DNA of 49,299 bases from Thermoplasmata archaeon (GCA_030037855.1 JASHPY010000122.1:1-49299); one strand, 5' to 3'. Counted from the stretch's first letter, positions 5,617 through 24,113 are shown. Program-made: numbers and translations. Notes: generated by a model from the sequence alone, not told the origin.

Positions 5617-5645
5617 CCGCGCGACCGGGGCGGAGGCGGAGGGGA

Positions 5646-6068: not shown

Positions 6069-7079
6069 GTGAACGCAGTCGCGGTCGACGTCCGGCTGCT
6101 CATCTTCGGACTCGTCGCCGGCGCGTTGCTGGCGGCCTTCGGGCTCGACCGGCTGCTCGGCGACCCCACGGAACGGTCGTGGGCCGAGCAATGGTACCCC
6201 CCGGTCCTCGTCGGCCGGGCGGCCATCGGGCTCGAACGGGGTGTCCCTCGAGGGAATCCGGCGCGAGAGACGGGATGGGGTACGCTCGACTGGTTCGTCC
6301 TCGTCGCCGGAGTCACGGCGCTCGCGTTCGGACTGACGGTCGTCGAACGATGGACGCTACCGGCGACCGTGGCCGCGTCGCCACTCCCGTGGGCCCTTGT
6401 CGGACTTGCGGCGTTCGGCTTCGGAGTGGTATGGCTCAAGTCAACATTCGCGGTCCGCACGCTCGAGCGCTTCTGCCTCCGTCCGCTCGGGCGGCCGCTC
6501 GACGCCATGCGCATCGAGGTGGGCCAGGTCGTGAACCGCTTGACCTCGGATCTGCCCCGAGAACTCCTGTGCTCGGCCCTCGTGGAGAGTGCGGTCGAGA
6601 ACACCACGGACAGCGTGGTCGCGCCACTCCTCGCGTACTCGCTCCTCGGTCTGCCGGGAGCGGTCGCGTATCGCACGATCAACACCCTGGACGCCCTCTG
6701 GGGCCATCCCGAGCCCCGGTGGCGGTTCTTCGGTCGTACGGCTGCCCTGGTCGACTCCGCCGTGAACTATCTCCCGGACCACCTCGCGAGCGGAATGCTC
6801 CGCGCGGTGGCGGGTCGGCCGTTCGCTCCGCCGCGCATCGAGCGAGTGGCCCCCGACGCGAAAGTTCCGGCCACGATCCGGACCGCGGCCGGCTTGCTCG
6901 GGGTCCGACTGGAGCGCCGCGGTTCCTACGTGGTGGGGCCAGAGAACCGTCCCCCGACGGAGGAGGACGTTCGCCGAGTCGTGCGTTGGGTGCGACAGGC
7001 AAGCGGGTTGATGCTGCTGCTCAGCTTGGGTCTGATCGCGGGGCTCGTCGATGTGGGTTGGACGTACTTCCTCCGGTGA
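6069..7079 (+). CDS. cbiB: Adenosylcobinamide-phosphate synthase CbiB/CobD
   Basis: This is a membrane protein. The motifs LLGDP...YPPV and ENTTDSVVAPLLAYSLLGLPGAVAYRTINTLDALWGH are typical of the CobD/CbiB family. Confidence 0.9.
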   Translation: MNAVAVDVRLLIFGLVAGALLAAFGLDRLLGDPTERSWAEQWYPPVLVGRAAIGLERGVPRGNPARETGWGTLDWFVLVAGVTALAFGLTVVERWTLPATVAASPLPWALVGLAAFGFGVVWLKSTFAVRTLERFCLRPLGRPLDAMRIEVGQVVNRLTSDLPRELLCSALVESAVENTTDSVVAPLLAYSLLGLPGAVAYRTINTLDALWGHPEPRWRFFGRTAALVDSAVNYLPDHLASGMLRAVAGRPFAPPRIERVAPDAKVPATIRTAAGLLGVRLERRGSYVVGPENRPPTEEDVRRVVRWVRQASGLMLLLSLGLIAGLVDVGWTYFLR

Positions 7080-7143
7080 CCCTCGGAGCGAGCGTCGCTC
7101 ACGCCCTCCCTCGCCAGTGCTCCCGACCCGCCGGATTCCCGAG

Positions 7144-8172
7144 GTGCCGCACGGCGGACTTCCACCGGGCGCGGGCGCGGCGGGCGCCCATGCCATCGTG
7201 GACCTCTCGCTCTCGGTGAACCCGTACGGACCGCCCCCGTTCTTGGCGGCGGCCCTACGTCGCGCTCGACGAGAAGCGGGGTGCTACCCGGACCGGCACC
7301 AGGTGGAGCTGACGCGTCGGCTCGCGGAGCGGCTGCGAGTACGCCCGGCGGAGGTGCTGGTGGCCGGGAGCGCCTCGGAGCTCCTGCGGGCCGCGATCAT
7401 CGCGTTCGGCGCCGGCCGCCGGGTGGTGCTACCCGCCTACACCTACGAGGAGTATCGACGCGTCGCCCGCGCGGCCGGCGCGCGCGTCACGAGCGTCCCG
7501 ATGCCGGGACTTCGACTCGACCTCGATCGCTTCGCGGGCGCGGTCCCGTCCCGCGGACTCGCGGTGCTCGCCAACCCCGGAACTCCGGACGGGCGATATC
7601 TTACCGTGGCGGAGATCGCGCACATTACGGCGGCCGTAGAGCGCCGGAACACGCTCCTCGTGGTCGATGAGAGCTACCTGCCGTTCGTGCGGGGCGCCAC
7701 CTCCGTGGGACGGGCCAGTGACGCGGTCCTTTCGGTCTTCTCCTGGTCGAAGACGCTGGGCGCGCCGGGCCTACCGCTCGGTCACGCGGTCGGCGCCGGC
7801 CCGGTCCTTGCGGCCCTGCGGGCGCAGCTGCTCCCGTGGACGGTCGACGCGGCCGCGCGTCAGATCGGACTCGCGGCACTGACCGCCGATGCCTGGGTCG
7901 AAGGGACGCTCGCGCGCGTGCGATCGACCGCGGACGTGGCACGGGCTCGGTTGCGCTCGACGTCCGAGACCCACTACTTCGCCGTCGATGTCGGGAACGC
8001 GACGGACGCGGCCGCGGCGTTCGCCCGACGGGGCTACTGGGTCCGCGAACTGACGTCGATGGGGCTCCCCCGACACATTCGTTTCGCGGTACGGCGGCGG
8101 GCAGAGACCGGTCGATTCCTCGACGAGCTCGAGGCGTGGTCGCGCCGACGGGGCACCGACCGCTCCGGCTAA
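7144..8172 (+). CDS. cobD: L-threonine-O-3-phosphate decarboxylase (class I/II aminotransferase fold)
   Basis: The N-terminus PHGG...IVDLSLSVNPYGPP resembles the Salmonella CobD start (HGG...DFSANINPLG). It sits directly after cbiB. The start is GTG 7144; the upstream in-frame ATG 7051 would overlap cbiB. Confidence 0.75.
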   Translation: MPHGGLPPGAGAAGAHAIVDLSLSVNPYGPPPFLAAALRRARREAGCYPDRHQVELTRRLAERLRVRPAEVLVAGSASELLRAAIIAFGAGRRVVLPAYTYEEYRRVARAAGARVTSVPMPGLRLDLDRFAGAVPSRGLAVLANPGTPDGRYLTVAEIAHITAAVERRNTLLVVDESYLPFVRGATSVGRASDAVLSVFSWSKTLGAPGLPLGHAVGAGPVLAALRAQLLPWTVDAAARQIGLAALTADAWVEGTLARVRSTADVARARLRSTSETHYFAVDVGNATDAAAAFARRGYWVRELTSMGLPRHIRFAVRRRAETGRFLDELEAWSRRRGTDRSG

Positions 8173-8173
8173 C

Positions 8174-9238
8174 TCATCGGCCGCGGACGCGCCCCGCGAC
8201 CCGGGCCTCTTCGAACGTCGCCATCTCGTCGAGGAGCCGCGCCGCGGCCTCGCAGAGCAGCATCTGAAGGGCCGCCCCGGTGCCCTCGCCGAGCCGTAGT
8301 CCGAGGTCGAGGTAGGGTACGAGACCCAGTCGGTCGAGCGCGAGCCGGTGGCCGGGCTCGGCCGACCGATGGGAGGGTACGAGAAACGCCGGAAGTCCAG
8401 GCTGGATGCGACTCGCCCATACCGTCGCCACGGTCGCGATGAAACCGTCCACGATCACGGGCACCCGGTGCGCCGCGGCTCCGAGAGCCGCTCCGGCCAT
8501 GGCCGCGATCTCAAAGCCCCCCACCTCGCGCAGCACGGACCACGGGTCGTTCGCATCGATCGCGCGATCCCGCAGAGCCGCGTCGACCAGGCGTGCCTTT
8601 CGGGCCACTCCGGAGGCATCGAGCCCTGTCCCGGGGCCGACCACATCCACCCCCGGTCGGCCGGTTAGCGCCGCCAGCATCGCACTCGCCGACGTGGAGT
8701 TACCGATCCCCATGTCGCCGATCGCGAGAAGGTCCGTTCCGGCCTCGACCACGGAGTCGGCGACCGCGCTCCCGACCTCGACGGCCCGTTCTGCCTCATC
8801 GTGGGTCATCGCCGCCTCGCGGGCGAAGTTGCGTGTCCCCCGGGCGATCCGCGCGACTCGTAGGGACGCGTGCGTGGGCCGAGGCTCCGCGTCGATCCCT
8901 ACGTCGACGAACACCACGTCCGCGCCGACGAGCCGGGAGAGTACGTTGATGGCCGCGCCGCCCGCGAGAAAGTTCTCCAACATCGCGGCGGTCACGCTCG
9001 CCGGGTACGCCGAGACCCCTTCGCTGGCGATTCCGTGATCCGCTGCAAAGACCGCGATTGTCTTACGCCGGAACCGGGGACGGGGATCGCCCCGGATGGA
9101 CGCAAGGCGTTCGGCCAGCTCCTCGAGCCGGCCCAGGCTCCCTTCGGGCTTGGTGAGCGTGGCCCAGCGCCGATGGGCCTCCGCGGCGACCGACGGATCG
9201 AGGCGCGGGAGTTCATACGCCTCCGTCGGCGGGGCCAT
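8174..9238 (-). CDS. cobT: Nicotinate-nucleotide--dimethylbenzimidazole phosphoribosyltransferase
   Basis: The motifs LTKPEGSLGRLEELA, AADHGIASEGVSAYP, AAINVL and GIGNSTSASA are present. The internal ATG (M156 of the 509-aa track ORF) is taken as the start. The upstream extension is Arg-rich nonsense. Confidence 0.9.
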   Translation of the reverse strand: MAPPTEAYELPRLDPSVAAEAHRRWATLTKPEGSLGRLEELAERLASIRGDPRPRFRRKTIAVFAADHGIASEGVSAYPASVTAAMLENFLAGGAAINVLSRLVGADVVFVDVGIDAEPRPTHASLRVARIARGTRNFAREAAMTHDEAERAVEVGSAVADSVVEAGTDLLAIGDMGIGNSTSASAMLAALTGRPGVDVVGPGTGLDASGVARKARLVDAALRDRAIDANDPWSVLREVGGFEIAAMAGAALGAAAHRVPVIVDGFIATVATVWASRIQPGLPAFLVPSHRSAEPGHRLALDRLGLVPYLDLGLRLGEGTGAALQMLLCEAAARLLDEMATFEEARVAGRVRGR

Positions 9239-9348
9239 GGAACGGACCCACGGGACGTGGGGCCCCTTCACCGTTTCGGCCGCGAGGGGCCGTACCGGAC
9301 GGCGTCGCTCGGCCCGCTCCTTATCTCGATGATGCGCTCCCCCAACGT

Positions 9349-10125
9349 ATGGGCCTCGGGGCCTCGCTCTCGTTCCTCTCTCGAATACCGTCGCGGCGTT
9401 CGGACGGCGCTTCGATCGCCCTCGCCCTCCCCTGGTTCCCTCTCGCCGGGCTCCTCGTCGGAGCGGTGCTGGGCATCGCGGCCACGCTCGAGTTCTTCGT
9501 GCTCCCCACGGTCGCGGCGTTTCTGTTCGTCCCGACGTACTTCGCGGTGAAGGGGATCCTCCATACCGACGGTCTCGCCGACACGGCAGACGCGCTGGCG
9601 GCCCACGGGTCGCCGGACGACCGGGACCGGGTGCTCCGCGACCCGCACATCGGCGCGGCGGGGGCGGTCGTGATCGCCGTGTTCGTTGTCGGTCTGTTCG
9701 CAACGTTCGAGTCGATCCGTGCTCAGAGCGTCTTGCTGGGGCCGGTCGGTGCGTGGATCGGACTGTTCCGCTGGGCGCCGCTGATCCTGCCGATGCTCGC
9801 GGAACTCACCGCGACGACCACGTTGGTGGCGGCCTTCGGCCTCGCGCCCCTATCGCCCCACTCCCGACTCGCCAGTGCGTTCGCCGCGGGAGCCTCGCGC
9901 GGGGGACTGGTGACCGGCGTGGCGGTCGGAGTCGCTCTGCTCGTACTCTTCGGGGGCGTTGTGGGAGTCGTACTTGCCGGGGGCGCACTCGTCGTCGCCT
10001 ACCTCGTCGCGCGGGTCTCCCGTCGGTGGTTCTCGGGCCTCAGCGGGGACCTCCTCGGCGCGGGTCACGACGTCGCGTTCCTCCTCGCACTGGTCCTCGC
10101 GCTCGGATGGCTATGGCCCCGGTGA
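9349..10125 (+). CDS. cobS: Adenosylcobinamide-GDP ribazoletransferase (cobalamin synthase)
   Basis: This is a membrane protein with the sequence LSFLSRIP...HTDGLADTADAL, which is diagnostic of CobS. Confidence 0.9.
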   Translation: MGLGASLSFLSRIPSRRSDGASIALALPWFPLAGLLVGAVLGIAATLEFFVLPTVAAFLFVPTYFAVKGILHTDGLADTADALAAHGSPDDRDRVLRDPHIGAAGAVVIAVFVVGLFATFESIRAQSVLLGPVGAWIGLFRWAPLILPMLAELTATTTLVAAFGLAPLSPHSRLASAFAAGASRGGLVTGVAVGVALLVLFGGVVGVVLAGGALVVAYLVARVSRRWFSGLSGDLLGAGHDVAFLLALVLALGWLWPR

Positions 10126-10165
10126 GCGGTCCTCCGTTACCTCCGCGGTCCCTCGGAGCGAGACG

Positions 10166-10813
10166 ATGACCCTCGCGATCGTGCTCGCGGGAGGCCGGGG
10201 CCGTCGACTCCGGCGACCGGGCGTGGAGAAGCCGCTCGTGCGGGTCGGTGGCGCGACGCTCCTCGCCCGGGTCGTGTCGGCGGTCCGTCCGGCGCCGGGG
10301 GTCGACCTGCGCGTCGCCGTGAGCCCGCATACCGTCCGAACCGCCCGCGCCTGCCGCGACTTCGGACTCGAAGCGCTGGAGACGCCGGGCGCCGGCTACG
10401 CGACGGACGTCGGATACCTACTCGGACGATTCCCCCGGTTCGCGACGATCTCCGCGGACCTGCCGTTCCTCGCGCCCGCGGCGGTCGTGCGGTTCCTCGG
10501 CGCCGCGACCCGGTCGGCGACGGGCCTCGTGGGCGTGCTGCCGATTGAACGCTGCCGGTTTCCCGTCCCGGACGACCTCGCGTGGCGGCTCGAGCCCGGC
10601 GGCCGGGTCGCCGGGCGGATGGTCGGTATCAACTGGGTCGTCGCGGACGCCCCGGCTCCGGATCGCCTCTACCGGTTCGATGACCCGGAGCTCGAGTACA
10701 ACATCAATCGTCCGATCGATCTCGTCCGGGCCCGGCGCCACGCCGCGCGAGGCGCCCCGACCACACCGCGTCTTCCACTCCTAGGCGCGCCTCCCAGGCG
10801 TACCGATCGGTGA
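10166..10813 (+). CDS. cobY: Adenosylcobinamide-phosphate guanylyltransferase, archaeal type
   Basis: The N-terminal nucleotidyltransferase motif is MTLAIVLAGGRGRRL...EKPL. The gene lies between cobS and cbiZ. The start is the internal ATG (M70 of the track ORF). Confidence 0.75.
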   Translation: MTLAIVLAGGRGRRLRRPGVEKPLVRVGGATLLARVVSAVRPAPGVDLRVAVSPHTVRTARACRDFGLEALETPGAGYATDVGYLLGRFPRFATISADLPFLAPAAVVRFLGAATRSATGLVGVLPIERCRFPVPDDLAWRLEPGGRVAGRMVGINWVVADAPAPDRLYRFDDPELEYNINRPIDLVRARRHAARGAPTTPRLPLLGAPPRRTDR

Positions 10814-11474
10814 GCGGTAGGCTCCGCGCGGCCGCTGAGATCCTCGCCCGTGACCAGCCGCGCTCGACCAGCCGCGCGCGGATCGTGCGGTCGAGCCGAA
10901 TCCCGTCCCCGATCACGAGGCTCTCGGCCACGGCGGCCGCCACCATCGCGCCGAGAGCGCGGCCCCGCGGCGTCGCCGCACCGCAGTACTCCCAGCGCTC
11001 GCCGGAGTTTTCGCACGCCACCACAACCGCATCCGTCGACGTGCCCGTCGCCGGAGCGCGGCCGTCGTGCACGTCGAGTCGTCGCAGCGCGGCGCCCTTG
11101 GCCTCGGTCGCCACCTTGACGGCCTCCACCATCGCCCCCGACGTCGGCACCCCCGAGAGGACGAGTACGATGTTGATCGTCCCGACGAACGCCGCGTTCG
11201 ACACGCCCGCCGTCACGAGCACGGTTCCGTAGCGACTCCGGCGTGTCGCGACCGCCCGTAGATCGACGGCGGTGAGCAACCCCACCACGGAGCGAAGCCT
11301 CGTGCGCCGCTCGAAACGGCGGAAGAACGACGGAACCGGTTCATGGTACGACTTCGGAACGTGGACGTTGACGATCGTGCGGGCTCGACGGGCCCCCCCG
11401 TGCCAGGGCGCCGAGCTCACTACTCGAAAGTCCCCGCGAACCAGGAGGTACTCCTCCCGGATCGACCAGTGCAT
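10704..11474 (-). CDS. cbiZ: Adenosylcobinamide amidohydrolase
   Basis: The 256-aa protein contains VSSAPWHGG, LLTAVDL, GTINIVLVL and ATGTSTDAVVVA, a CbiZ-like pattern. It sits in a B12 context. It overlaps the cobY 3' end by 110 nt in convergent orientation. Confidence 0.75.
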   Translation of the reverse strand: MHWSIREEYLLVRGDFRVVSSAPWHGGARRARTIVNVHVPKSYHEPVPSFFRRFERRTRLRSVVGLLTAVDLRAVATRRSRYGTVLVTAGVSNAAFVGTINIVLVLSGVPTSGAMVEAVKVATEAKGAALRRLDVHDGRAPATGTSTDAVVVACENSGERWEYCGAATPRGRALGAMVAAAVAESLVIGDGIRLDRTIRARLVERGWSRARISAAARSLPLTDRYAWEARLGVEDAVWSGRLARRGAGPGRDRSDD

Positions 11475-11572
11475 GTCGGGCCGTCCGCCCGCGCCACTTC
11501 ACGATTGCGGGCCGGCGCGGGGTGTCGGGAGGCCAGCACCGCCTCGGAGGCCCTTACCGGGGCGCGACGCTA

Positions 11573-12334
11573 ATGGGACCCTACTCGGTGGGCCCGCTGA
11601 TGGACGGGGCGGAACCGAACGGAGCGGCTCAGCGAGCGAGGGACGAGGTCACCCCCCGGGACCGCGAGGGGTTCTACCGGGTCCTCTACGGCCGGCGCGA
11701 CATCCGGTCTCAGTTCCTACCGGACCCGATCCCGGACGAGGTCCTCGTCGCGGTCCTGAGGGCGGCGCACCACGCCCCATCGGTCGGGTTCATGCAGCCG
11801 TGGAACTTCGTGGTCGTCCGCGACCGCGCCATCCGTGAGAAGGTCCGCGCGAACTTCGAGGAGGTGCGACGCGAGGGCGCCGCCCAGTTCTCCGGTGAGC
11901 GAAGGTCGCTCTACGATTCGCTGAAGCTCGAAGGCATTCTCGACGCCCCGGTCAACATCTGCGTGACGTGCGACCCCGACCGGGCCGGGAAGGCCGTTCT
12001 GGGCCGCGTCCGAGTGCGGGAAGTGGACGTCTTCTCCACCTGCCTCGCGATCGAGAACCTGTGGCTGGCGGCGCGGGCGGAGGGTCTCGGCGTCGGCTGG
12101 GTGAGCATCCTCGACCCGGAGCGGGTCCGGGACCTCCTCGAAATCCCGGTCGGGATCTCTCCGCTCGCCTATCTGACGATGGGATATGTTCGCGAGTTCC
12201 CCCGGCGACCCGAGCTCGAGACGAAGGGATGGGCGACACGGGCCCCGCTCGACGGGCGGATCTTTCTGGACCGGTGGGGCGCGAGGTATCCGTCGCCCCT
12301 CGATACACCTCCGGTCGCTACGACCGATCGCTGA
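11573..12334 (+). CDS. bluB: 5,6-dimethylbenzimidazole synthase (nitroreductase-fold BluB)
   Basis: The motifs YGRRDIRSQFLPDPIPDEVL..AAHHAPSVGFMQPWNFVVV, LEGILDAPVNICVTCD and GLGVGWVSIL are present. The start is either ATG 11573 or the ORF maximum at 11522. Confidence 0.85.
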   Translation: MGPYSVGPLMDGAEPNGAAQRARDEVTPRDREGFYRVLYGRRDIRSQFLPDPIPDEVLVAVLRAAHHAPSVGFMQPWNFVVVRDRAIREKVRANFEEVRREGAAQFSGERRSLYDSLKLEGILDAPVNICVTCDPDRAGKAVLGRVRVREVDVFSTCLAIENLWLAARAEGLGVGWVSILDPERVRDLLEIPVGISPLAYLTMGYVREFPRRPELETKGWATRAPLDGRIFLDRWGARYPSPLDTPPVATTDR

Positions 12335-13943
12335 GTCGGCGTCCCGGCGGCCCGAGCCGACGCACCAAGGCGCTGAGGTCGACGTGCGCCTCCAGAAGAT
12401 CCGCCACGGCGTCGATCGTTCGGTCCAGCCCGGGGAAGACCGCGTCCGGGCCGGTCGGAACGCGGTGCCGGACGGACGGCTTCCGTGGAGGGGCACTCCC
12501 CCCTACCCACCGCACGAGACCCTCGAGGGCTTCCGACGACCCGAGCGCGCCGTGGAGCAGGGTGCCCCAGACACGACCGTCCGCGGTCCGGGCGCCGTCG
12601 GGTTCCGTCGGCTCGGCGAAGTCGCCCGAGGCGGAGACCGAGAAAATCGGGTTCGTGGAAGCGCCCCGGACGACCTGGCCCCGATGGATCTCGTACCCTC
12701 GGATCCCCGCGCCGAGACGTAGCCAGGGGTGGCCCCGGTAGGCGCGCGCCGTCACCAACCGGACCACCTTCGAACCCCGGAAGCGAGTCGCTACCGGCAA
12801 GAGGCCGAGCGCTCGATGGTGGCCGGGCGGGCCGTCCCATCCCTCAGTGTCGTGGAGCCACGTTCCGAGCAACTGGAACCCGCCGCAGATCCCACCGACG
12901 CCGGCTCCCCGCGCCCGAGCTTGGCGCAGCGCTCTCGGCCAGCCGCCCGCCCGTAGCCAAGCGAGATCGTCCCCGGTGCGCCTCGTCCCCGGAAGTAGGA
13001 TCGCCGAGCACTCCGCGATTTCGCCCGCGGAGCGGACCCAACGCGTGTCGAGCTCCGGACACCGTTCGAGCGGCTGGAAGTCGGAGAAGTTCGCGGTATG
13101 CGGGAGTCGGACGATACCGAGTCGCGGAAGGCCCGCCCGACCCGGCGATCGCGGCGCGCGCGCCAGCTCCAGCGAATCCTCCGGCGGGAGCGCCCCGGCC
13201 TTCGCTGGAAGCATCGGGAGCACGCCCAGCACGGGCACCCCGACGCGGTCCGCGGTCCACGCCATCGCGGGCCGGAAGAGCCGTTCGTCTCCTCGAAGCC
13301 GATTGAAGATGATGCCACAGACCCGGGCGCGTTCGGACGGCGTGAGGAGCTCGAGCGTCCCCACGACCTGCGCGAGCGAGCCGCCACGCTCGAGGTCCGC
13401 GACGAGGATCACGGGGATGTCGAGCACCTCCGCGACGAAGAAGTTCGAAAGATCGCTCTGACGCAGGTTCAGCTCGACCGGCGAGCCGGCGCCTTCCGCG
13501 ACGACGACGACGTCGGACTTGCGGAGCGTCGCGAGCGTTCGCCGGATCTCCGTGCGGAGCCGCGGCAGCTGGGCGGGCATTTCGCGACGCCAGGAGCGGA
13601 GCCGGGCTACCGGCCGACCGCGGAGGATGACCTCGACGCTCCCGTCGTAGGGCTTCAGCAGCACCGGGTTCGCGTCCGCCGAGGCCGTGACCCGCGCGGC
13701 GGCGCACTGCACCCACTGCGCGATCGCGATCTCCGCCCCCGTTTCCGTGGCGATCGAGTTGAGGGACATGTTCACCGCTTTGAACGGCGCTACGCGGTAG
13801 CCACGGCGGACGAGCGCGCGGCAGAGCCCGGTCGTTACGAAGCTCTTGCCCGCGTCGCTCGTGGTCCCCGCGACGAGCACGCCCGGCGCGCGAGAGGACC
13901 GCTCGCTACCACTCGATTCCCGGGCGGGCATCCATCCCTCCAT
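12318..13943 (-). CDS. cobQ: Cobyric acid synthase
   Basis: The N-terminal P-loop-like domain begins VLVAGTTSDAGKSFVTTGLCRAL. A C-terminal glutamine amidotransferase domain carries GGICGGFQLLG. Confidence 0.9.
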   Translation of the reverse strand: MEGWMPARESSGSERSSRAPGVLVAGTTSDAGKSFVTTGLCRALVRRGYRVAPFKAVNMSLNSIATETGAEIAIAQWVQCAAARVTASADANPVLLKPYDGSVEVILRGRPVARLRSWRREMPAQLPRLRTEIRRTLATLRKSDVVVVAEGAGSPVELNLRQSDLSNFFVAEVLDIPVILVADLERGGSLAQVVGTLELLTPSERARVCGIIFNRLRGDERLFRPAMAWTADRVGVPVLGVLPMLPAKAGALPPEDSLELARAPRSPGRAGLPRLGIVRLPHTANFSDFQPLERCPELDTRWVRSAGEIAECSAILLPGTRRTGDDLAWLRAGGWPRALRQARARGAGVGGICGGFQLLGTWLHDTEGWDGPPGHHRALGLLPVATRFRGSKVVRLVTARAYRGHPWLRLGAGIRGYEIHRGQVVRGASTNPIFSVSASGDFAEPTEPDGARTADGRVWGTLLHGALGSSEALEGLVRWVGGSAPPRKPSVRHRVPTGPDAVFPGLDRTIDAVADLLEAHVDLSALVRRLGPPGRRLSDRS

Positions 13944-14493
13944 GGTACGGATGCTTCATCCCGACCATCATCGTGACGAGGTGCGCGCGATCGAGCAGCA
14001 TCTTCGGCGCTCCGCGCCCCGTCAGGACGAGTTCGGTGGTAGCGGCCTTCTGGTCCAGGAGCTCCACGACCTCCGCGACTGGGATGAGCCCGCGGACGAT
14101 CGCCGTGTTGACCTCGTCGAGCACGACCAGGTCGAACGCGCCGCTCGACGAAGCGCGACGCCCGCTGCGGAGCGCTCGGCGGGCCAGCTCGAGATCCTCT
14201 TCGGCCGGCCGGTCCCGCTTCACCCAGTGACCGCTGCCGTACTGTTCGATGTGAACTCCGGGGAGCTTTCGCAGGGTAACGATCTCGCCGTAGTTCCCCT
14301 TCTTCATGAACTGGATGAGGCAGCAACGAAGTCCGTGCCCGACCGCGCGAGCGATGAGACCAAAGCTGGCCGTACTCTTCCCCTTCCCTCCGCCGGTGTA
14401 GACCTGGATGAGCCCGGTCGTGAGCGGCGTGCGGCGCGACCGGGGGGGTACCTCGAACCGGGGGTAGGTCGGCTCCTCCTCGTTGTACGGCAT
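13906..14493 (-). CDS. cobA: Cob(I)yrinic acid a,c-diamide (corrinoid) adenosyltransferase, CobA/CobO/BtuR type
   Basis: The motifs IQVYTGGGKGKSTASFGLIARAVGHG, LIQFMKG and VVLDEVN are present. Length is 195 aa. Confidence 0.9.
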   Translation of the reverse strand: MPYNEEEPTYPRFEVPPRSRRTPLTTGLIQVYTGGGKGKSTASFGLIARAVGHGLRCCLIQFMKKGNYGEIVTLRKLPGVHIEQYGSGHWVKRDRPAEEDLELARRALRSGRRASSSGAFDLVVLDEVNTAIVRGLIPVAEVVELLDQKAATTELVLTGRGAPKMLLDRAHLVTMMVGMKHPYHGGMDARPGIEW

Positions 14494-14603: not shown

Positions 14604-15092
14604 GTGTCGCTCGTGCGCTTCCATGTGGTCTGTGGTGGCGGAACCGGGTCGCAGCTGCTGCGCCGGCTCCACGCGAAGGGCTACGAGCTCTCGGCCGGAG
14701 TCCTCGCGGAGAACGACGACGACGCGCTCACCGCGAGCGCCCTGGGCGCCACGGTCGTGCTCGCGCCGATACCCGGGTCGATCGAACCGAAGATCCTGGC
14801 ACGCGTTCGTCGGTGCATGCTCCGTTCCGCCGGAGTGATCCTCACCCCGTTCGCTGTCGGGCGAGGCAACCTGCCGAACCTCGAGGTCGTTCTCGGACTG
14901 CCCCCGGAGCTCCCGGTCCTGATCGTCGTCGGGGGCGAATTCGCGCGACGCGACTACACGGGAGGCGAGGCAACTCGGATCTACGAAGCCCTTCGAGCGC
15001 GGGCGCTCGCGTCCGTGGCCTCGAGCGAGGATCTTGTGCGCGAGGTCACCGCGCGATTCCCTCTCGGGCCGGATTTCCGTTCGGGCAACTGA
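14604..15092 (+). CDS. Hypothetical protein, free-standing copy of the 'HVVCGGG(S/T)G' domain
   Basis: GTG start, 162 aa. It aligns by eye along its whole length with the C-terminal ~150 aa of the ATPase at 17364..18644, with roughly one third of residues identical. It is the first gene of the importer operon and is divergent from cobA. Confidence 0.7.
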   Translation: MSLVRFHVVCGGGTGSQLLRRLHAKGYELSAGVLAENDDDALTASALGATVVLAPIPGSIEPKILARVRRCMLRSAGVILTPFAVGRGNLPNLEVVLGLPPELPVLIVVGGEFARRDYTGGEATRIYEALRARALASVASSEDLVREVTARFPLGPDFRSGN

Positions 15093-15139
15093 GCCGAGTC
15101 GGACCCTGGGATCGTAGCAACCGCGGTCCATCACGCCAG

Positions 15140-15160
15140 CCTTATCTACAACAGATATTA
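15140..15160 (+). promoter_or_regulatory. Putative promoter (TATA-like elements) of the substrate-binding protein gene
   Basis: This is an isolated AT-rich patch, CCTTATCTACAACAGATATTA, located 17-37 nt upstream of ATG 15177. The octamer CCTTATCT recurs upstream of cobS (9319..9326). Confidence 0.35.
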
Positions 15161-15176
15161 CAGAATTCCTACGCAT

Positions 15177-16229
15177 ATGAACGCGACCCCACCGACCTCC
15201 GAGGAAATCGACCGCCCCCGCCGCGGCGCTCGCACCTGGCTCCCCACCGTCGTCCTCGCCATCCTGCTCGTGGCCGTGGTCGCGATCGCGGCGCTCGACC
15301 TCACCGTTTTCCGTCCCGCGGCGGCCTCGAGTTCCAGCACGCAGGGTTCCGTCACCGTGGTGGACGACTCGGGACGGTCCGTCACCGTCAGCGGAGTTCC
15401 TACCCGAATCATCGTGCTCGGTCCGAGCGTGATGGACATCCTCTTCCGATTGGGGCTGCGCGCCGACGTGGTCGGCGTGGACGGGGGTCCGGCGTCGGCC
15501 GGCGGTGTACTGGACGACTACTCTCCGGGTCAGGTCGCCAACTGGAGCCTCAGCTCCCTGCCGGTCATCACCTGGGATCCCACGCTGGACGTGGAGGCGG
15601 TCATCGCCCTCAACCCGGACCTCGTCGTCGCCGGATCCGGCTTCTCGCTGTCCCAGCTCGAGTCGCTGCAGAGCACGTACGGTATCCCCTGCCTCTACCT
15701 CAATCCCCCCACGCTTGCCGGGATCGAGTACGACGTCTCGATCGTCGGAGCGGTCACCCGCACCAACGCGACCGCGGTAGCGCTGAACGAGCAGATGGAG
15801 GCGTCGATGCTGTCCGACGCGAATGAGCTCGTCAACATCACCGCCGTGCCGTCCGTGTTCCTGACCTACTACCCCGACGCCGGAGGCTATTGGACGTTCG
15901 GGCCGGGCAGCTTCGGCAACGACCTCATCTTGGACGCGGGTGCGACCAGCATCACGGAGAACGACACGCTTGCCAATTCCGAGGAGGTCAGCGGCAGCTA
16001 TATTCTGGCCGCGAACCCGGCGGCGATCATCGTCGGCACCGGCTTTGGGCTCGAGGAGCAAAACTACTCCCTCTCCCCCGACTGGTCGTCGTTCGGAGCC
16101 GTTCAGGCGGGTCACGTGATCGCGCTCAACGCGATCTACCTAACCGAGCCCGACCCGAGCATGATCTTCGGGCTCGCGAACCTCATTACCCTCCTCCATC
16201 CTGAGCTCAGCGGTGGGACGCCCCTCTGA
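15177..16229 (+). CDS. ABC importer substrate-binding protein, BtuF/FhuD-like (class III PBP), membrane anchored
   Basis: The protein has an N-terminal TM anchor. The motif PTRIIVLGPSVMDILFRLGL.ADVVGVD is typical of the PF01497-type family. It lies upstream of a FecCD permease. Confidence 0.85.
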   Translation: MNATPPTSEEIDRPRRGARTWLPTVVLAILLVAVVAIAALDLTVFRPAAASSSSTQGSVTVVDDSGRSVTVSGVPTRIIVLGPSVMDILFRLGLRADVVGVDGGPASAGGVLDDYSPGQVANWSLSSLPVITWDPTLDVEAVIALNPDLVVAGSGFSLSQLESLQSTYGIPCLYLNPPTLAGIEYDVSIVGAVTRTNATAVALNEQMEASMLSDANELVNITAVPSVFLTYYPDAGGYWTFGPGSFGNDLILDAGATSITENDTLANSEEVSGSYILAANPAAIIVGTGFGLEEQNYSLSPDWSSFGAVQAGHVIALNAIYLTEPDPSMIFGLANLITLLHPELSGGTPL

Positions 16230-17367
16230 ACGGTCGGTCCCCTCGGTCGCTCGGCTCGAGGATCCGGGCCTCGGGCCGCGTCGCGGGCGTGGACCGACGC
16301 GCACCCTCCTCGTTGTGGGCGTGGCGTTGCTCGTGGGCACGCTCGCCTCCCTCGCGGTCGGGCCCGTCGCGATCCCCCCCGAGAACCTCGCGTACCTGTT
16401 GTTGCACCGGATCGGCCTCCTCGCAGTCCAGGACTGCCCCACGCGTCTGGTGGTGGACGGGACCTCGGTGCCCTGTTCGATCCAGGCCGAGATCCTGTTC
16501 GACTCGCTGCTACCGATCGTCCTCCTGTCGCTATTGGTCGGCGCGGCCCTCGCTCTGTCGGGGGCGGCGATGCAAGGCCTCTTCCGCAACCCGCTAGCCG
16601 ACCCCTACCTCCTCGGCATCTCCTCGGGGTCTGCCCTGGGTGCCGCGCTGGTGTTCGTGAACGCCTCGTTCCTTGGGATCACGCTCGAGGCGGGCCAGCA
16701 GGACATACTCGTACCGCTGCTGGCCTTCCTCGGCGCGTTCGCGGCGGGTCTTGTCGTGCTGGTCGCGTCCCACTCCCGGTGGGCGAACGCGGAGACCCTG
16801 ATCCTCACCGGTGTTGCGCTCGCGGCCATCTTGGGGGACCTCATGGTCCTCGTGATCTCGCTGCGGCCGCTCGCCGTCGCGCTGCCGCTCACGTTCTGGC
16901 TACTCGGCGGCTTCGAGTCCGCCACCTGGGATCAGGTGGGCGTCCTGGCGGCGGTGGTGGTGGTCGCCGGCGGGATTCTGATCCTCCACGGGCGCGTGCT
17001 GAACGTCCTCCAGATGGGGGAAGAGACGGCCGCCGGACTGGGGATCTCGGTGCCGTCGATGCGTCGCCGACTGATCCTACTGTCGGTCATCCTGACGGCC
17101 ACCGCGGTCGCTTTCTCGGGTGTGATCGGCTTCGTGGGTCTGGTCTCGCCGCATATCGTCCGCCGGATCCAGGGCCCGAACTATCAGTCTCTGTTGCCGG
17201 CGTCCGCGCTCGTGGGCGCGCTGCTGCTCGTGGTCGCGAACGACGTCGCGACCTCGGTCCTGGGCGGCGGGGCCATATTGCCGGTCGGGGTGGTGACCGG
17301 TGTGATGGGCGGGCCGTTCATCCTCTACCTCCTCTACCGTCGCCGGAGCTCGGCGGGGTCGGCATGA
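16213..17367 (+). CDS. FecCD/BtuC-family ABC importer permease
   Basis: The motif LALSGAAMQGLFRNPLADPYLLGISSGSALGAAL is present and the protein is polytopic. It overlaps the next gene by ATGA. Confidence 0.9.
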   Translation: MGRPSERSVPSVARLEDPGLGPRRGRGPTRTLLVVGVALLVGTLASLAVGPVAIPPENLAYLLLHRIGLLAVQDCPTRLVVDGTSVPCSIQAEILFDSLLPIVLLSLLVGAALALSGAAMQGLFRNPLADPYLLGISSGSALGAALVFVNASFLGITLEAGQQDILVPLLAFLGAFAAGLVVLVASHSRWANAETLILTGVALAAILGDLMVLVISLRPLAVALPLTFWLLGGFESATWDQVGVLAAVVVVAGGILILHGRVLNVLQMGEETAAGLGISVPSMRRRLILLSVILTATAVAFSGVIGFVGLVSPHIVRRIQGPNYQSLLPASALVGALLLVVANDVATSVLGGGAILPVGVVTGVMGGPFILYLLYRRRSSAGSA

Positions 17368-18644
17368 CCGCGGCCCTGCCCCTCGAAGCCCAGGGAATCT
17401 CGGTGGACCTCGGCGGACGTACCGTCCTCACCGGTGTCGACCTCACGCTCTCCGATGGAGAGTTGCTCGCCGTGGTCGGACCGAACGGCTCTGGCAAGAC
17501 CACGCTCCTGCGGACCTTGCTGGGGCTGCAGAAGCCGCGGACGGGTCGGGTCCAGCTCCTGGGGCGTCCAGTCGACGAGCTCAGCCCGTCCGCCCGCGCC
17601 CGCCGTGCCGCCTGGATGCCGCAGGAGGAACGCCCGTCGGAGAACCTCTCGGTCGCCGATTACGTGGCGCTCGCCCGGTTCCCGCACATCGGTGCCTTCG
17701 GCCTGGAGGACGAGTCGGATCGTCAGGCGATCGAGGGTGCGCTCGTCGCGTGCGAACTCGTGACCTTCCGCAACCGCGGGGTGCTCGACCTCTCGGGCGG
17801 CGAACGACAACGGGTGCTCTTTGCGCGCGCCCTCGCCCAGGCCGCCCCGGTGCTCGTGCTCGACGAACCCACGAGTCATCTCGATATGGCTCGACAGTTC
17901 GAGGTCCTCGGTTATCTCGATCGCTTCCGCCGGGAAGCGCCGGGGCGCGCGGTCATCGTCGCGATGCACGACCTCAACCTCGCGTCTCGCTACGCGAACC
18001 GGCTGTTGTGGCTGGCCCGGGGGGAGATCGCGGCGCTCGACACGCCGCAGGCGAGCGTCACTCCCGAGCGGATCTTCCAGGTCTTCGGCGTGGAAACCGT
18101 CGTCCAGACCCGCGACGGCCAGGTCGTCGTGTTCCCCCCTCGCTCTCCGGAGGCACCGCCCCGCCCCCGCGTCGCGGGTCTTCGAGTGCACGTGGTCTGC
18201 GGCGGAGGGAGCGGCGAAGAACTGCTCCCGGCGCTCGTCGCGGCCGGCCACGCCGTCAGCGCGGGCGCGCTGAACCTACTGGACAGCGACCAGGCCCTAG
18301 CCCGGGAACTCCACGTCAGCGCCGCGGTCGAGGCGCCGTTCTCCGCGCTCTCCGACCCGGTCCGGGCGGAGAACCGGCGCCTCATGCAAAGCGCCGACGC
18401 GATCGTCGTAGCCCCCCTGTGCATCGGCGCCGCGAATCTCGCGAATCTCGAAGACCTCCTCGAGCTCGACGGGACTCGCTGGGTCTTCGTTCTCGACGGC
18501 CCGTCCTCGGTTCGGCGGGACTTCACGGGCGGCCGCGGGGATCGGGCGCTCGAGGAGCTTGAACGAAGGGGTGCGACGCGAGTCAAGAGCACCCCCGTGC
18601 TCATGAAGTTGCTGAATGACAGTTCCCGCCGCCGGAGTCCATGA
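17364..18644 (+). CDS. BtuD/FepC-like ABC importer ATPase fused to a C-terminal ~150-aa uncharacterised domain
   Basis: Walker A GPNGSGKTT, signature LSGGERQR and Walker B VLVLDEPTSHLD make up the NBD (about 260 aa). A Pro-rich linker follows. The sequence then reads RVHVVCGGGSG...RDFTGG..., which is homologous to ORF 14604..15092. The start is the internal ATG (M196 of the track ORF). Confidence 0.9.
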   Translation: MTAALPLEAQGISVDLGGRTVLTGVDLTLSDGELLAVVGPNGSGKTTLLRTLLGLQKPRTGRVQLLGRPVDELSPSARARRAAWMPQEERPSENLSVADYVALARFPHIGAFGLEDESDRQAIEGALVACELVTFRNRGVLDLSGGERQRVLFARALAQAAPVLVLDEPTSHLDMARQFEVLGYLDRFRREAPGRAVIVAMHDLNLASRYANRLLWLARGEIAALDTPQASVTPERIFQVFGVETVVQTRDGQVVVFPPRSPEAPPRPRVAGLRVHVVCGGGSGEELLPALVAAGHAVSAGALNLLDSDQALARELHVSAAVEAPFSALSDPVRAENRRLMQSADAIVVAPLCIGAANLANLEDLLELDGTRWVFVLDGPSSVRRDFTGGRGDRALEELERRGATRVKSTPVLMKLLNDSSRRRSP

Positions 18645-18933
18645 GTCGGAGAGTCTCCCGCTCGAGTGAGCCAACGCTCCGTCTCCGCCGGGCCGGTTCG
18701 CCTGGGGGTCGTGATGCGGACCTCCTTGCGCCGCCCACGCCCGGGGCGGCTCGATCGAGCGCGGCGTGCGACCCGCGATCGACACCGGTCTGCGCGCGCG
18801 GGTCGACCGGTCGGGTCGCCGTCGGCATCGCCCACGGCGTCCGGGGAGCTCGGGCGGGGGAGCGACGCACGTGACCGCGAAGCGTCATGGCCGAGCGCGG
18901 CCTCCGCGAGGGGCGCCCGGCGCGGCCCGGTCG

Positions 18934-19758
18934 ATGCCGGTGGAAGCCTCGGTCTCGGGGGAGACGACGGGCCTTCTGTCCCTCATGAAGCCCGGACGGC
19001 TCACCGAGATGCTGGTCCTGCTCGAGCTCGCGACCCGTCCGACCGGTCGACTCCGCCCGATCGCCGATCGTCTCGGGGTGTCGGTGCAGACGATATCGCT
19101 CCTGCAGCGCCGCTTCCGTCGCGAGGGAAAGGTCGCGCTGATCGGCGGCCGGTACCATACGACGCCGGCCGGCGTTGCCGCCCTCCACGCCGAGGTCACG
19201 TCGATTCGCTCCGATCTCGATACCCGGATCGCGGAGCTTCAGTTGGTTCGGGAGTGCCGCGCGATCGCCGCGGAGCCGGTCCGAGTGGGGACGCCGGTGG
19301 TCCTCTACATGAGGGACGGCGACCTGTACGCCCGCGAAGGTTCGGGCGGCGCTTCGCGGGGAGTCGCCCAGGGAAACGCTCGGCCCGGCGAGCTCGTGGA
19401 GGTCCGCCAGCTGGAGGGGGTGCTGCCCCTGCCGCCCGCCAAAGTGCTTTGTCTCGTCGTACCGACTCGGTCCTTGGCCTCGCTGTCGCCCGTCGTCCCC
19501 CAACTGCGACGTGCGCTCGCGCACACGGACGATCACCTGCTCGGGGCCGAGGGCCCGGAAGCGGTGCACGCGATGCGCCGATCGACGTCGCGGTCGTTCG
19601 TTCGATTCGGCGTCGCGGCGGCGGCGCGCGAGGCGGCGTTGCTCGGGGTCCCGGCCGCGGTGGTCGTCTCCGACTCCTACCTGACGTCGTTCCTGCAGCG
19701 GCTGGGCGAGCCGGGGCCGTCCGTCCCGATCGATGTCCGCACGATCGGGACGATCTGA
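18934..19758 (+). CDS. Putative winged-helix DNA-binding regulator with uncharacterised C-terminal domains
   Basis: The segment LTEMLVLLELATRPTGRLRPIADRLGVSVQTISLLQRRFRREGKV looks like a MarR/ArsR-type wHTH. About 200 aa with no motif I recognise follow. The start is either ATG 18934 or ATG 18985. Confidence 0.55.
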   Translation: MPVEASVSGETTGLLSLMKPGRLTEMLVLLELATRPTGRLRPIADRLGVSVQTISLLQRRFRREGKVALIGGRYHTTPAGVAALHAEVTSIRSDLDTRIAELQLVRECRAIAAEPVRVGTPVVLYMRDGDLYAREGSGGASRGVAQGNARPGELVEVRQLEGVLPLPPAKVLCLVVPTRSLASLSPVVPQLRRALAHTDDHLLGAEGPEAVHAMRRSTSRSFVRFGVAAAAREAALLGVPAAVVVSDSYLTSFLQRLGEPGPSVPIDVRTIGTI

Positions 19759-19796: not shown

Positions 19797-20570
19797 ATGG
19801 AGGCTCGAGAGGTTTTCTTCGACTTCGGTGGTACGCTGACCTCGCCGGTGAGCGATCTCCGGCCGCTCTTCGAGATCGCGGCCCGTGGCGCCGGTGTCCG
19901 GGTCTCGTGGGAGGAGTTCTCACGTGAGAACGACCGGTTGTGGGAGGATCTTTGGCCGACCGCGCCGGACTATCTTGGCCGTCGACCGTCGTTTGCCGAT
20001 ACCGTCCACGAGGAGGCGCTCCGCCGGGCGGGCGCGAAAGGCCCGGTCCGGTCGATGGTGCGTGCGATCCGTCGCGAGGCCGTTTCGGCCCGCTGGCACC
20101 CGCCGTTCCCCGAAACGGAGGTCGTGCTCGGGCGCCTCCGGAGCCGAGGCTACGGCATCCACGTGCTCAGCAACAACGTCGATTACCTCCCGCTCGTTCT
20201 GAAGAACCTCGGCTGGTCGCGGCTCTTCGACAGCGTCACCTACTCGCAGGAAGTCGGGGCCCAGAAACCCGACGCGCGAGTCTTCCGGTTCGCGCTCGCA
20301 CGGGCCGGGTGCGCGGCCGGCGACGCCGTGCACGTCGGCGACAGCTGGGAAGCCGACTACCTCGGGGCCATGAACGTGGGCCTCCGCGGGATCTGGCTCA
20401 ATCGAGAGGGCCAGGACGGTCACCCGGCCACCGAGGAGATCCGGGACCTTCGCGGACTTCTCGATCGGCTCCCCGGACGCGTCGTCGAGCGCCGGGCGCG
20501 AGCTCGTACGCTCTCCCACCCCGAGACTCGGCCGCGTCGGTCCATCGCCCCGGCGGGCCGACCGTCCTGA
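19797..20570 (+). CDS. HAD-superfamily hydrolase, subfamily IA
   Basis: Motif I is FFDFGGTL, motif II is VLSNN, and motifs III/IV are KPD...HVGDSWEADYLGA. The start is the internal ATG of track ORF 18666..20570. Confidence 0.85.
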   Translation: MEAREVFFDFGGTLTSPVSDLRPLFEIAARGAGVRVSWEEFSRENDRLWEDLWPTAPDYLGRRPSFADTVHEEALRRAGAKGPVRSMVRAIRREAVSARWHPPFPETEVVLGRLRSRGYGIHVLSNNVDYLPLVLKNLGWSRLFDSVTYSQEVGAQKPDARVFRFALARAGCAAGDAVHVGDSWEADYLGAMNVGLRGIWLNREGQDGHPATEEIRDLRGLLDRLPGRVVERRARARTLSHPETRPRRSIAPAGRPS

Positions 20571-23971: not shown

Positions 23972-24113
23972 GGAAGGAGGGCGCGAGGAGGCAGCGGGCT
24001 AAACGGTTTGGCACCCGGGGGTGCCGCCGGCGCCCGGATTGGCCCGTCGCTCCGACATGAGACTCGGTGCGGCGGCCCGAGCGCATAGCTCCAAGAGCGA
24101 GCGCGTGCTCGCG

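Follow-up and report, generated by a model that had tools for sequence, protein, structure and literature searches.

Why does the ATPase of a putative corrinoid importer in a Thermoplasmata archaeon continue, behind its nucleotide-binding domain (NBD), into a further domain that is also encoded in the same locus as a free-standing protein? The importer lies in a window of 49,299 nucleotides, by which we mean the whole stretch of DNA analysed here (Table 1). Its FecCD permease (PF01032), its class III binding protein (Peripla_BP_2, PF01497) and its BtuD/HmuV-type NBD place it among the type II importers, and it has the two partner proteins in common with E. coli BtuCD-F, HmuUV, BhuUV and FhuCDB. 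The NBD was matched by Foldseek to solved type II NBDs with TM scores of 0.86-0.90 (0.89-0.90 for HmuV and BtuD), but the solved proteins stop after about 250-260 residues and none of them covers the extra 154-residue domain. According to the original prediction, regulatory domains behind the NBD are known from type I and not from type II importers; a review agrees, describing them for type I importers only, and wherever such a domain C-terminal to an importer NBD has been studied, it is regulatory (PMC4245157).

Table 1. Coordinates of the importer genes, the two copies of the domain and the neighbouring cobamide genes in the window
Feature	Coordinates	Strand	Size and evidence
Cobamide salvage and late-synthesis island	6069..13943	mixed	Pfam matches
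cobD	6069-7079	+	Pfam
Aminotransferase gene	7051-8172	+	Pfam
cobT	8174 to about 9210	-	Pfam
cobS	9349-10125	+	Pfam
cbiZ	10704-11474	-	Pfam
bluB-like nitroreductase gene	11522-12334	+	Pfam
cobQ	12318-13943	-	Pfam
cobA (ATP:corrinoid adenosyltransferase)	13906..14493	-	PF02572, E 2.4e-55; divergent from free domain gene
Free-standing MJ0874-family protein	14604..15092	+	162 aa, GTG start; precomputed PF27219
BtuF-like substrate-binding protein	15177..16229	+	350 aa; PF01497 Peripla_BP_2, E 9e-23
BtuC-like type II permease	16213..17367	+	384 aa; PF01032 FecCD, E 1.3e-75
ABC ATPase, whole gene	17364-18644	+	426 aa, NBD::MJ0874
BtuD-like NBD, ATPase residues 1-258	17364..18137	+	PF00005, residues 22-171, E 1.9e-30
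Pro-rich linker, about residues 259-272: PPRSPEAPPRPRVA	18138..18179	+	Low pLDDT block (67) in full-length model
Fused MJ0874 domain	18180..18644	+	ATPase residues 273-426 and stop codon; precomputed PF27219

The ATG of the ATPase gene overlaps the TGA stop of btuC and marks the real start, so that a 621-aa ORF beginning at 16779 was rejected as the gene. The complete NBD and the Pro-rich linker that had been read ahead of the domain are both present. Because the 426-aa two-domain product has also been called in GCA_030046715.1 (NCBI) and in Logan SRR21679868, and because 115 of 118 verified genomic loci elsewhere have the fused architecture, the fusion is considered genuine and not an artefact of assembly. 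The gene order (domain, Peripla_BP_2, FecCD, NBD::domain), the divergence from cobA and the surrounding B12 island likewise stand as first described. However, btuC shares 17 nt with btuF and 4 nt with btuD, whereas the free domain gene is separated from btuF by an 84-nt gap containing an AT-rich stretch, and it is therefore uncertain whether the free domain gene and btuF-btuC-btuD form the single operon that had been proposed.

The resemblance between the free ORF and the C-terminus of the ATPase, previously seen by eye, was confirmed by BLASTP: residues 4-146 of the free protein align with residues 273-415 of the ATPase with 54 of 144 positions identical (38%), two gaps and E = 2e-22. Of the motif blocks listed earlier, HVVCGGG(T/S)G, SAG.L, G.(G/A)NL.NLE and RD(Y/F)TGG were all found, and they coincide with the alignment columns that are invariant, or nearly so, throughout the family (H7, G11-13, G32, D38, D40, G86, N89, D117 and G121). 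Judged from sequence, both copies are homologous members of the MJ0874 family. Pfam PF27219 ('MJ0874') is assigned by precomputed annotation to the free protein and to the 426-aa ATPase, and in NCBIfam NF007082 'corrinoid ABC transporter ATPase' the last third of the model consists of the domain; what was first described as uncharacterised is thus already catalogued. It does, as was expected, match no characterised family or solved structure, and a full-text literature search returned no paper with 'PF27219' or 'MJ0874'. In M. jannaschii, MJ0874 presumably adjoins the ABC ATPase MJ0873.

An exhaustive profile search retrieved 918 protein clusters, mostly NBD::MJ0874 proteins of about 420 aa in which the domain spans residues 270-420 or so, and PF00005 was combined with PF27219 in all of the top 120 ATPase homologues. 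The verified loci span Thermoplasmata, haloarchaea, Archaeoglobi, methanogens, Clostridia, Chlorobi, Actinomycetota, PVC bacteria and others. In archaea and anaerobic bacteria alike, a large branch of the type II importer ATPases (BtuD) that is dedicated to corrinoids carries MJ0874 as its standard C-terminal extension. The original prediction had treated the fusion as an exception and had kept to archaea in its scope; instead, the fusion predominates throughout a very large branch of BtuD, and many anaerobic bacteria also possess the family. What is unusual in this window is not the fusion, which is normal, but the extra free paralog.

The AlphaFold2 model of the free protein (pLDDT 91.7) is a Rossmann-like alpha/beta fold with six strands and seven helices, and the Rossmann-like fold that had been anticipated is supported by both this model and its structural neighbours. 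The best Foldseek neighbour was DprA (5mll, E 7.8e-4, TM 0.56), followed by several NADP reductases, and these weak matches comprise nucleotide-binding Rossmann folds only. The DprA/SLOG and NAD(P)-binding Rossmann folds share with the domain the glycine-rich loops after strands 1 and 4, but have no significant sequence or profile relationship to it. Probabilities by hhalign were 1.7% for Smf, 0.2% for PpnN and 2% for AroE; LSDAT_prok was weakly matched (E 0.023) by one of 57 diverse members scanned against Pfam, and a PDB profile search with the domain returned no match better than E 0.1. Where the CL0063 NAD(P)-binding Rossmann domains have a GxGxxG loop and an acidic residue after strand 2, the domain has G-G-G-x-G and D-x-D. 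A strand-GxGxG-helix start with acidic residues after strand 2 resembles dinucleotide-binding Rossmann/KTN modules, and such a resemblance, like the restriction of the structural neighbours to nucleotide-binding folds, would fit a general metabolic sensor that adjusts the importer to the state of the cell by binding a common nucleotide (NAD(H), ATP/ADP or a cyclic dinucleotide). Such a sensor would be comparable to the KTN/RCK domains on K+ transporters and the CBS domains of OpuA; however, the hhalign probability against the TrkA N-terminal domain was 0.3%.

Three other assignments were rejected. For DUF364, a relation to which had been guessed, no support was obtained in either Pfam scan: the window proteins had no PF04016 match at E <= 1, and although the 57 members matched 40 families at E <= 5, PF04016 was not one of the 25 matched most often. 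The cobalamin-binding domain PF02310 had no HMM match in the window proteins or the 57 members, hhalign against the MetH B12 domain (residues 740-900) gave a probability of 0.1%, and the invariant His sits within strand 1, not in a DxHxxG loop. Against a regulatory domain of the TOBE type (a beta-barrel) or the ACT/NIL type (ferredoxin-like) stand the six-stranded Rossmann-like model and the absence of TOBE or NIL Pfam matches; in a full-length Foldseek search, the matches to MalK, CysA and FbpC cover the NBD only.

The link with corrinoids is strong and reaches well beyond the window. Of the 8-kb blocks around the 118 loci, 90 contain btuC and 46 contain one or more cob genes; the domain usually has btuF and btuC beside it, and frequently also cobA, cbiZ, cobS, cobQ, cobT and cbiR. 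Cobalamin riboswitches were detected upstream of 8 of the 12 bacterial operons examined, and one protein has the architecture NBD::MJ0874::CbiR (CbiR at 263 bits versus a cutoff of 105). The name that NCBIfam gives to NF007082, the model covering the domain, points the same way. The cob/cbi neighbours, the B12 riboswitches of the bacterial homologues and the CbiR fusion indirectly support the putative corrinoid specificity of the window importer. MJ0874 is essentially confined to corrinoid loci and does not occur on the paralogous type II importers of haem, siderophores or metals. Sensing of energy or redox state would predict neither this substrate specificity nor a free paralog beside cobA, and we regard a general metabolic sensor as unlikely.

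The free protein of the window is 50-85% identical to other free proteins versus 36-44% to any fused domain, and it belongs to a separate clade, found only in relatives of this Thermoplasmata archaeon. The free paralog shares its locus with a fused copy; no more than one gene separates it from cobA in any of the five lineages examined, and in two of them cbiZ follows it directly. These positions, together with the triple fusion to the cobamide-remodelling enzyme CbiR and the adjoining of cbiR in the Chlorobi loci, speak for a tethered processing or hand-off module, an enzyme or chaperone that also occurs as a soluble paralog and readies the corrinoid for CobA, CbiZ or CbiR. Candidates would be a corrinoid reductase that uses NAD(P)H or flavin and feeds reduced corrinoid to the adenosyltransferase, or an escort like human CblC/CblD. 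The set of invariant residues (His, Asp-x-Asp, Asn, Asp) is one typically seen in catalytic or metal sites, and weak matches to NAD(P)-binding Rossmann families recur: PF03807 in 7 of the 57 members (best E 0.018), the N-terminal domain of ketol-acid reductoisomerase (KARI; E 0.13), ThiF and NAD_binding_7. None of the Rossmann-family sequence matches, however, reaches statistical significance (best E 0.018-0.13), the domain showed no recognisable redox-cofactor motif, and a lone domain of 150 residues has no obvious second substrate-binding lobe. Moreover, the near-constant length of the linker and the near-absence of the domain away from the BtuD NBD tie it to the transporter and not to metabolism, and a dedicated processing or hand-off module is, in our estimate, conceivable but doubtful.

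Among 214 relatives, the linker is not conserved in sequence, whereas the H-loop and the invariant His are separated by an almost uniform distance (71-80 residues), which suggests that the position of the domain relative to the NBD is constrained. With a pTM of only 0.68 and low confidence in the linker, the full-length monomer model does not predict a rigid allosteric coupling, a point in favour of hand-off and against feedback on the NBDs. The constant linker length and the position C-terminal to the NBD, where other importers carry dimerising domains, would also agree with a purely structural role, in which a ligand-free domain would help the BtuD subunits to dimerise or would stabilise their dimer. 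We consider this improbable, since the polar and glycine-loop residues are equally conserved in free proteins without an NBD, an independent clade of free paralogs has persisted, and E. coli-type BtuD, HmuV and FhuC function without such a domain.

Free and fused forms alike retain the conserved glycine loops and invariant polar residues, which speaks for a small-molecule site and against a surface that serves only to dock the NBD. Our preferred reading, put forward tentatively, is that MJ0874 is a cytoplasmic module that binds a corrinoid or nucleotide, and through which import is adjusted by feedback and corrinoid is handed on to CobA and CbiZ. The roles named in the original prediction (trans-inhibition, sensing, hand-off) are accordingly plausible. 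The predicted pocket would be built from two glycine-rich loops, each at the start of a helix (GGG.G following strand 1, G.GN following strand 4), and lined by the invariant polar residues His7, Asp38-x-Asp40, Asn89 and Asp117. Its ligand would bear a nucleotide or phosphate and would most likely be the imported corrinoid, or its adenosyl or nucleotide-loop part. Through the linker of constant length, two copies of the domain under the NBD dimer would report the internal corrinoid level and, in a replete cell, restrain closure of the NBDs, a form of trans-inhibition like that of ModC and MetN. The paralog, in keeping with its place beside cobA and often ahead of cbiZ, may be a soluble binder that holds corrinoid for CobA and CbiZ or passes it to them. 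On the other side, many bacterial operons carry a B12 riboswitch and therefore would not obviously need feedback at the protein level, the invariant His, Asp and Asn would suit catalysis equally well, the domain has no detectable resemblance to corrinoid-binding folds already known, and Asp117 is exchanged in some members.

The closest functional analogy is molbindin, a domain of the molybdate system (ModC, Mop/ModG, ModE), which likewise occurs both as the C-terminal domain of an importer ATPase (ModC) and as free cytoplasmic proteins (Mop/ModG), with fused and free forms in a shared gene neighbourhood, as for MJ0874. The C-terminal domain of ModC causes trans-inhibition (PMC4245157). The two differ in fold and importer class, molbindin being a beta-barrel and ModBC type I, whereas MJ0874 is Rossmann-like and its importer type II; ligand binding is proven for molbindins, whereas the ligand site of MJ0874 is predicted from sequence and model.

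In overall design, the window ATPase resembles BtuD of the Halobacterium type (NF007082 / PRK09536), in which a type II NBD is followed by MJ0874 and which is encoded together with btuC and btuF. By genetics, the haloarchaeal system reportedly imports corrinoids, a finding attributed to Woodson et al. 2005; we found no work on the function of the extra domain of haloarchaeal BtuD. In the NF007082 model, the domain occupies positions of about 268-402, of which the fused domain of the window matches 268-349. The window ATPase scores 289.4 bits (positions 4-349 of 402) against a cutoff of 537, which places it outside the equivalog as a distant relative; the score of a Halobellus homologue is 498.8. 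The verified haloarchaeal loci showed no free paralog, whereas the window has one. The haloarchaeal copies have RN(Y/F)AG where the window proteins have RD(F/Y)TGG, and D117 is replaced by Asn in haloarchaeal and Archaeoglobus proteins. One Halolamina copy of MJ0874 is degenerate in appearance.

The ABC ATPase gene of the window (btuD) encodes a complete nucleotide-binding domain (NBD; PF00005) fused to a copy of MJ0874 (PF27219), a domain of about 150 residues, of which a second copy is encoded as a free protein in front of the importer genes (Table). In a BLASTP alignment, residues 4-146 of the free protein pair with ATPase residues 273-415 (38% identity, two gaps, E = 2e-22). This alignment contains all of the sequence blocks on which the original prediction had based the likeness of the two copies, and thereby confirms it. 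The genes next to btuD encode a Peripla_BP_2 binding protein (btuF) and a FecCD permease (btuC), and genes upstream of, divergent from or near the importer genes include cobA, cobQ, cobS, cobD, cobT, cbiZ, a bluB-like nitroreductase gene and an aminotransferase gene. Because the start codon (ATG) of the ATPase gene shares nucleotides with the TGA stop of the permease gene before it, a 621-aa ORF starting at 16779 is regarded as an overprint and not as the ATPase gene.

Coordinates of features in the window, in related loci (L-numbers) and in the model of the free MJ0874 protein (domain numbering)
Feature	Sequence	Position	Strand	Details
tRNA call (Rfam)	window	5646-5808	-	163 nt span
CobT	window	8174-9210
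BluB-like	window	11522-12334
Free MJ0874 protein	window	14604-15092	+	162 aa
AT-rich stretch	window	15137-15176		40 nt, ccttatctacaacagatattacagaattcctacgcat
ABC ATPase gene	window	17364-18644	+	426 aa
DUF7839 protein (PF25211) gene	window	18766-19758	+
HAD-family hydrolase gene	window	19797-20570	+
ORF with UvrB	window	21111-24320	-	1069 aa
BluB-CobT fusion	L126	3456-5291
BluB-CobT fusion	L128	2979-4817
Cluster adjoining CRISPR-Cas cassette	L134	1053-6885
Strand 1	domain	5-9		then GGG.G loop
Helix	domain	16-24
Strand 2	domain	28-34		then D-x-D
Helix	domain	39-46
Strand 3	domain	50-53
Helix	domain	62-73
Strand 4	domain	77-80		then P...G.GN loop
Helix	domain	90-97
Strand 5	domain	105-108		then RD(Y/F)TGG
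Helix	domain	122-133
Strand 6	domain	136-138
Helix	domain	141-151

The distribution of the domain was studied by two approaches. A profile search of 1.84 billion cluster representatives, conducted without a word index, yielded 918 proteins at E <= 1e-3, of which 523 had E <= 1e-10; among the retrieved proteins, 86 were full-length NBD::MJ0874 fusions of 399-460 aa, about 31 were fragments of such fusions, and about 45 began with the domain, some of them being truncated. Genomic DNA, represented by one genome per GTDB species, was scanned with a hand-built degenerate pattern, H-(V/I/L)-(V/I/L)-x-G-G-G-x-(G/A)...G...G...D-x-D, and at least 120 loci were obtained. Among the matches listed, 118 of 120 contain the true domain and 115 of these 118 encode the NBD::MJ0874 fusion; the other three (L056, L065 and L072), in which the domain appears free, are located at 8-kb block boundaries and are probably cut-off fused genes. 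Gene calls in two other assemblies of this organism (three in all) give the identical 426-aa two-domain product. These observations rule out an assembly artefact or a frameshift at ~18150-18190. Both PF00005 and PF27219 are present in all of the top 120 homologues of the window ATPase, which is 44-46% identical to the BtuD proteins of Thermoplasmata metagenome-assembled genomes; its closest relatives are annotated merely as 'ABC transporter ATP-binding protein [Thermoplasmata archaeon]' or 'iron complex transport system ATP-binding protein'. These relatives place the window in a Thermoplasmata archaeon.

Among the matches listed, the archaeal hosts include members of Thermoplasmata, Halobacteria, Archaeoglobi, Methanomicrobia, Methanophagales and Bathyarchaeia, and the bacterial hosts members of Clostridia and other Bacillota, Chlorobi, Actinomycetota, Verrucomicrobiota, Lentisphaerae, Kiritimatiellae, Armatimonadota, Chloroflexota, Atribacterota and Desulfuromonadales. 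Given the locus counts and this breadth of hosts, the fusion is the norm for a large branch of BtuD proteins that is not restricted to archaea, and the original view of it as exceptional is not borne out.

The domain, described in the original prediction as uncharacterised, is already catalogued: precomputed annotation assigns both window proteins to PF27219 under the name 'MJ0874', while the copy of the Pfam HMMs that we scanned gave no match for it. Against the NCBI model NF007082 (PRK09536, 'corrinoid ABC transporter ATPase'), which has 402 positions, the free protein matches positions 268-348 and the ATPase positions 4-349; a homologue from Halobellus scores 498.8 bits against the model cutoff of 537 bits. 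MJ0874 is thus an integral part of the model by which NCBI represents the ATPase of the haloarchaeal corrinoid transporter. The domain is present in a very large share of the BtuD proteins of archaea and anaerobes, this haloarchaeal type among them. Our literature searches found no paper that names PF27219 or MJ0874 or discusses a C-terminal domain or extension of BtuD.

Strong and independent evidence marks the domain as a component of corrinoid importers, and the association is much stronger than could have been known when it was proposed. Among the matches listed, btuC lies beside the fused gene within the 8-kb blocks in 90 of 118 loci, and 46 of 118 have at least one of cobA, cobQ, cobS, cbiZ, cobT, cbiR, bluB, cobD and the aminotransferase gene. 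A cobalamin riboswitch precedes the operon in 8 of the 12 bacterial loci tested (66-122 bits; gathering score 31.5). One protein of 694 aa, P0162, has the architecture NBD::MJ0874::CbiR, its CbiR part (NF041277, a cobamide-remodelling phosphodiesterase) scoring 263 bits where the cutoff is 105, and in Chlorobi loci cbiR lies immediately 3' of btuD::MJ0874; the loci recorded for these two arrangements are L013, L038, L089, L110 and L124. The domain is a good genomic marker that sets corrinoid importers apart from the many FecCD-type transporters labelled no more closely than 'iron complex transport'.

A clade of their own is formed by the free proteins (P0001-P0017 and P0021): identity is 50-85% among them but only 36-44% with any fused domain, even the one encoded ~2 kb away. 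No second copy was detected in any of the 118 scanned loci among the matches listed. The contexts of the free gene were compared across five lineages. In the window and in L126, L128 and L129, cobA is divergent from the order free gene-btuF-btuC-btuD::MJ0874; in L132, the free gene diverges from cobA and converges with btuD::MJ0874-btuC-btuF-cbiZ; in L130 and L134, the pair free gene-cbiZ is convergent with cobA, followed by btuD::MJ0874; and in L001, the free gene diverges from cobT and converges with cobA-btuF. By its separate clade and these contexts, the free copy is an old paralog kept beside cobA in addition to the fused copy. That it is a split-off half of BtuD was ruled out for the lineage of the window by its own clade and by the intact fused copy in the same locus. 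In L134, the cluster free MJ0874-cbiZ-cobA-btuD::MJ0874 adjoins a type I-U-like CRISPR-Cas cassette (Cas3, GSU0053/GSU0054 families).

The AlphaFold2 model of the free protein (20-sequence alignment; pLDDT 91.7, pTM 0.88) and its Foldseek matches in the PDB agree with the Rossmann-like fold anticipated from the sequence; the matches are to generic folds of this kind only, namely DprA (E 7.8e-4, TM 0.56), FtsZ and NADP-dependent reductases. A Pfam scan of 57 diverse members gave only weak NAD(P)-Rossmann matches (PF03807 in 7 of 57, best E 0.018). DUF364 was not among the 25 most frequent of the 40 families matched at E <= 5, nor did a B12-binding domain appear, and the suggested relation to DUF364, which also had no match in scans of the window proteins, is unsupported. 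A canonical B12-binding domain found no support in the Pfam scan or in hhalign of the family profile with the B12 domain of E. coli MetH (probability 0.1%), and the TOBE and NIL regulatory folds were ruled out because the modelled fold differs. Kinship with SLOG/DprA, LOG, KTN or shikimate dehydrogenase likewise gained no support from hhalign, with probabilities of 1.7% for Smf/DprA, 0.2% for PpnN, 0.3% for the TrkA N-terminal domain and 2% for AroE, all from E. coli, single-sequence templates being a weak test. No solved structure matched in sequence: PDB searches gave no hit for the single protein and a best E of 0.13 for the 57-sequence profile. With the full-length ATPase model (pLDDT 90.2, pTM 0.68, linker weak), Foldseek matched the NBD to HmuV, BhuV, BtuD and FhuC over ~260 columns and returned no solved chain covering the MJ0874 domain.

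Across the 57 sequences (mutual identity <= 42%), H7, G11, G13, D40, G86 and N89 are invariant and G12, L22, G26, G32, D38, D117 and G121 near-invariant, and the conserved core is common to the free and fused forms. Conservation does not extend to the linker sequence, but in nearly all of the 214 proteins compared, the invariant His of the domain lies 71-80 residues from the H-loop. The near-invariant RD(Y/F)TGG is replaced by RN(Y/F)AG in haloarchaea (L012, L043, L061 and L018) and Archaeoglobus (L122), and the Halolamina copy (L018) retains neither the G.GN nor the RD motif; thus, the conserved site is not universally kept. It is firmly established that MJ0874 is a distinct, widespread Rossmann-like family, almost always fused to a corrinoid-type BtuD, and that its glycine loops and polar residues make up a conserved, pocket-like set.

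We tentatively propose that this cytoplasmic module binds a nucleotide-like ligand, most likely a corrinoid. Ligand binding by the fused form would feed back on the NBD dimer, and the free paralog may buffer corrinoid or hand it over to CobA and CbiZ. These roles would parallel those of the molbindin domain, which is present in ModC and in Mop/ModG (PMC4245157). The main rival, a tethered processing or escort module such as a corrinoid reductase for CobA, draws support from the association with cobA, cbiZ and cbiR and from residues that look catalytic, and we hold it to be unlikely on the whole. A general nucleotide sensor appears quite improbable, and a purely structural role still more so.

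Uptake of corrinoids by BtuCD-F is the textbook case of a type II ABC importer, and the studied E. coli system is without the MJ0874 domain. Importer ATPases with C-terminal accessory domains are a known kind; new here are the fold and the type II importer. We know of no post-translational control or substrate channelling in type II importers, and a domain that senses or processes the cargo would add one or the other. It is a doubtful possibility that MJ0874 responds to the substrate or processes it, as the first accessory domain of a type II importer to do so, either as a trans-inhibiting BtuCD sensor or as a reductase or escort that feeds CobA, and in either case with a new corrinoid-binding fold. 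A corrinoid sensor would imply B12 homeostasis at the protein level in archaea; a reductase or escort would be the missing corrinoid feeder of CobA in archaea and anaerobes. Archaea have, to our knowledge, no B12 riboswitches, and such a function would help to explain how they balance cobamide uptake, remodelling (CbiZ, CbiR) and adenosylation (CobA).

Several minor features of the window were also noted. The btuF, btuC and btuD genes overlap, and the free gene is separated from btuF by 84 nt (106-190 nt in the relatives L126 and L128). This gap holds the AT-rich stretch, immediately 5' of the btuF ATG in a window and genome of ~70% G+C. A possible reading of this stretch is an archaeal TATA/BRE promoter, in which case btuFCD would be transcribed apart from the free MJ0874 gene; the latter may form its own transcription unit. 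Directly 3' of btuD lies the DUF7839 gene, followed by the HAD-family hydrolase gene, and this pair also trails the operon in the related Thermoplasmata loci L126, L128 and L129; a DUF7839 gene occurs in the cob island of L132. The DUF7839 protein is a candidate regulator of the B12 island and the hydrolase a candidate phosphatase, e.g. for alpha-ribazole phosphate. BluB-like nitroreductase and CobT (DBI_PRT) are encoded on opposite strands in the window and joined in one protein of 611-612 aa in L126 and L128. The tRNA call by Rfam (41.3 bits), where ARAGORN reported none in 5500-6000, may be an intron-containing archaeal tRNA. In the 1069-aa ORF, UvrB is confined to the C-terminal two thirds or so. 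The long N-terminal part of the ORF, rich in Arg, Gly and Pro, probably reflects the scarcity of stop codons in high-GC sequence and no true extension of the protein.
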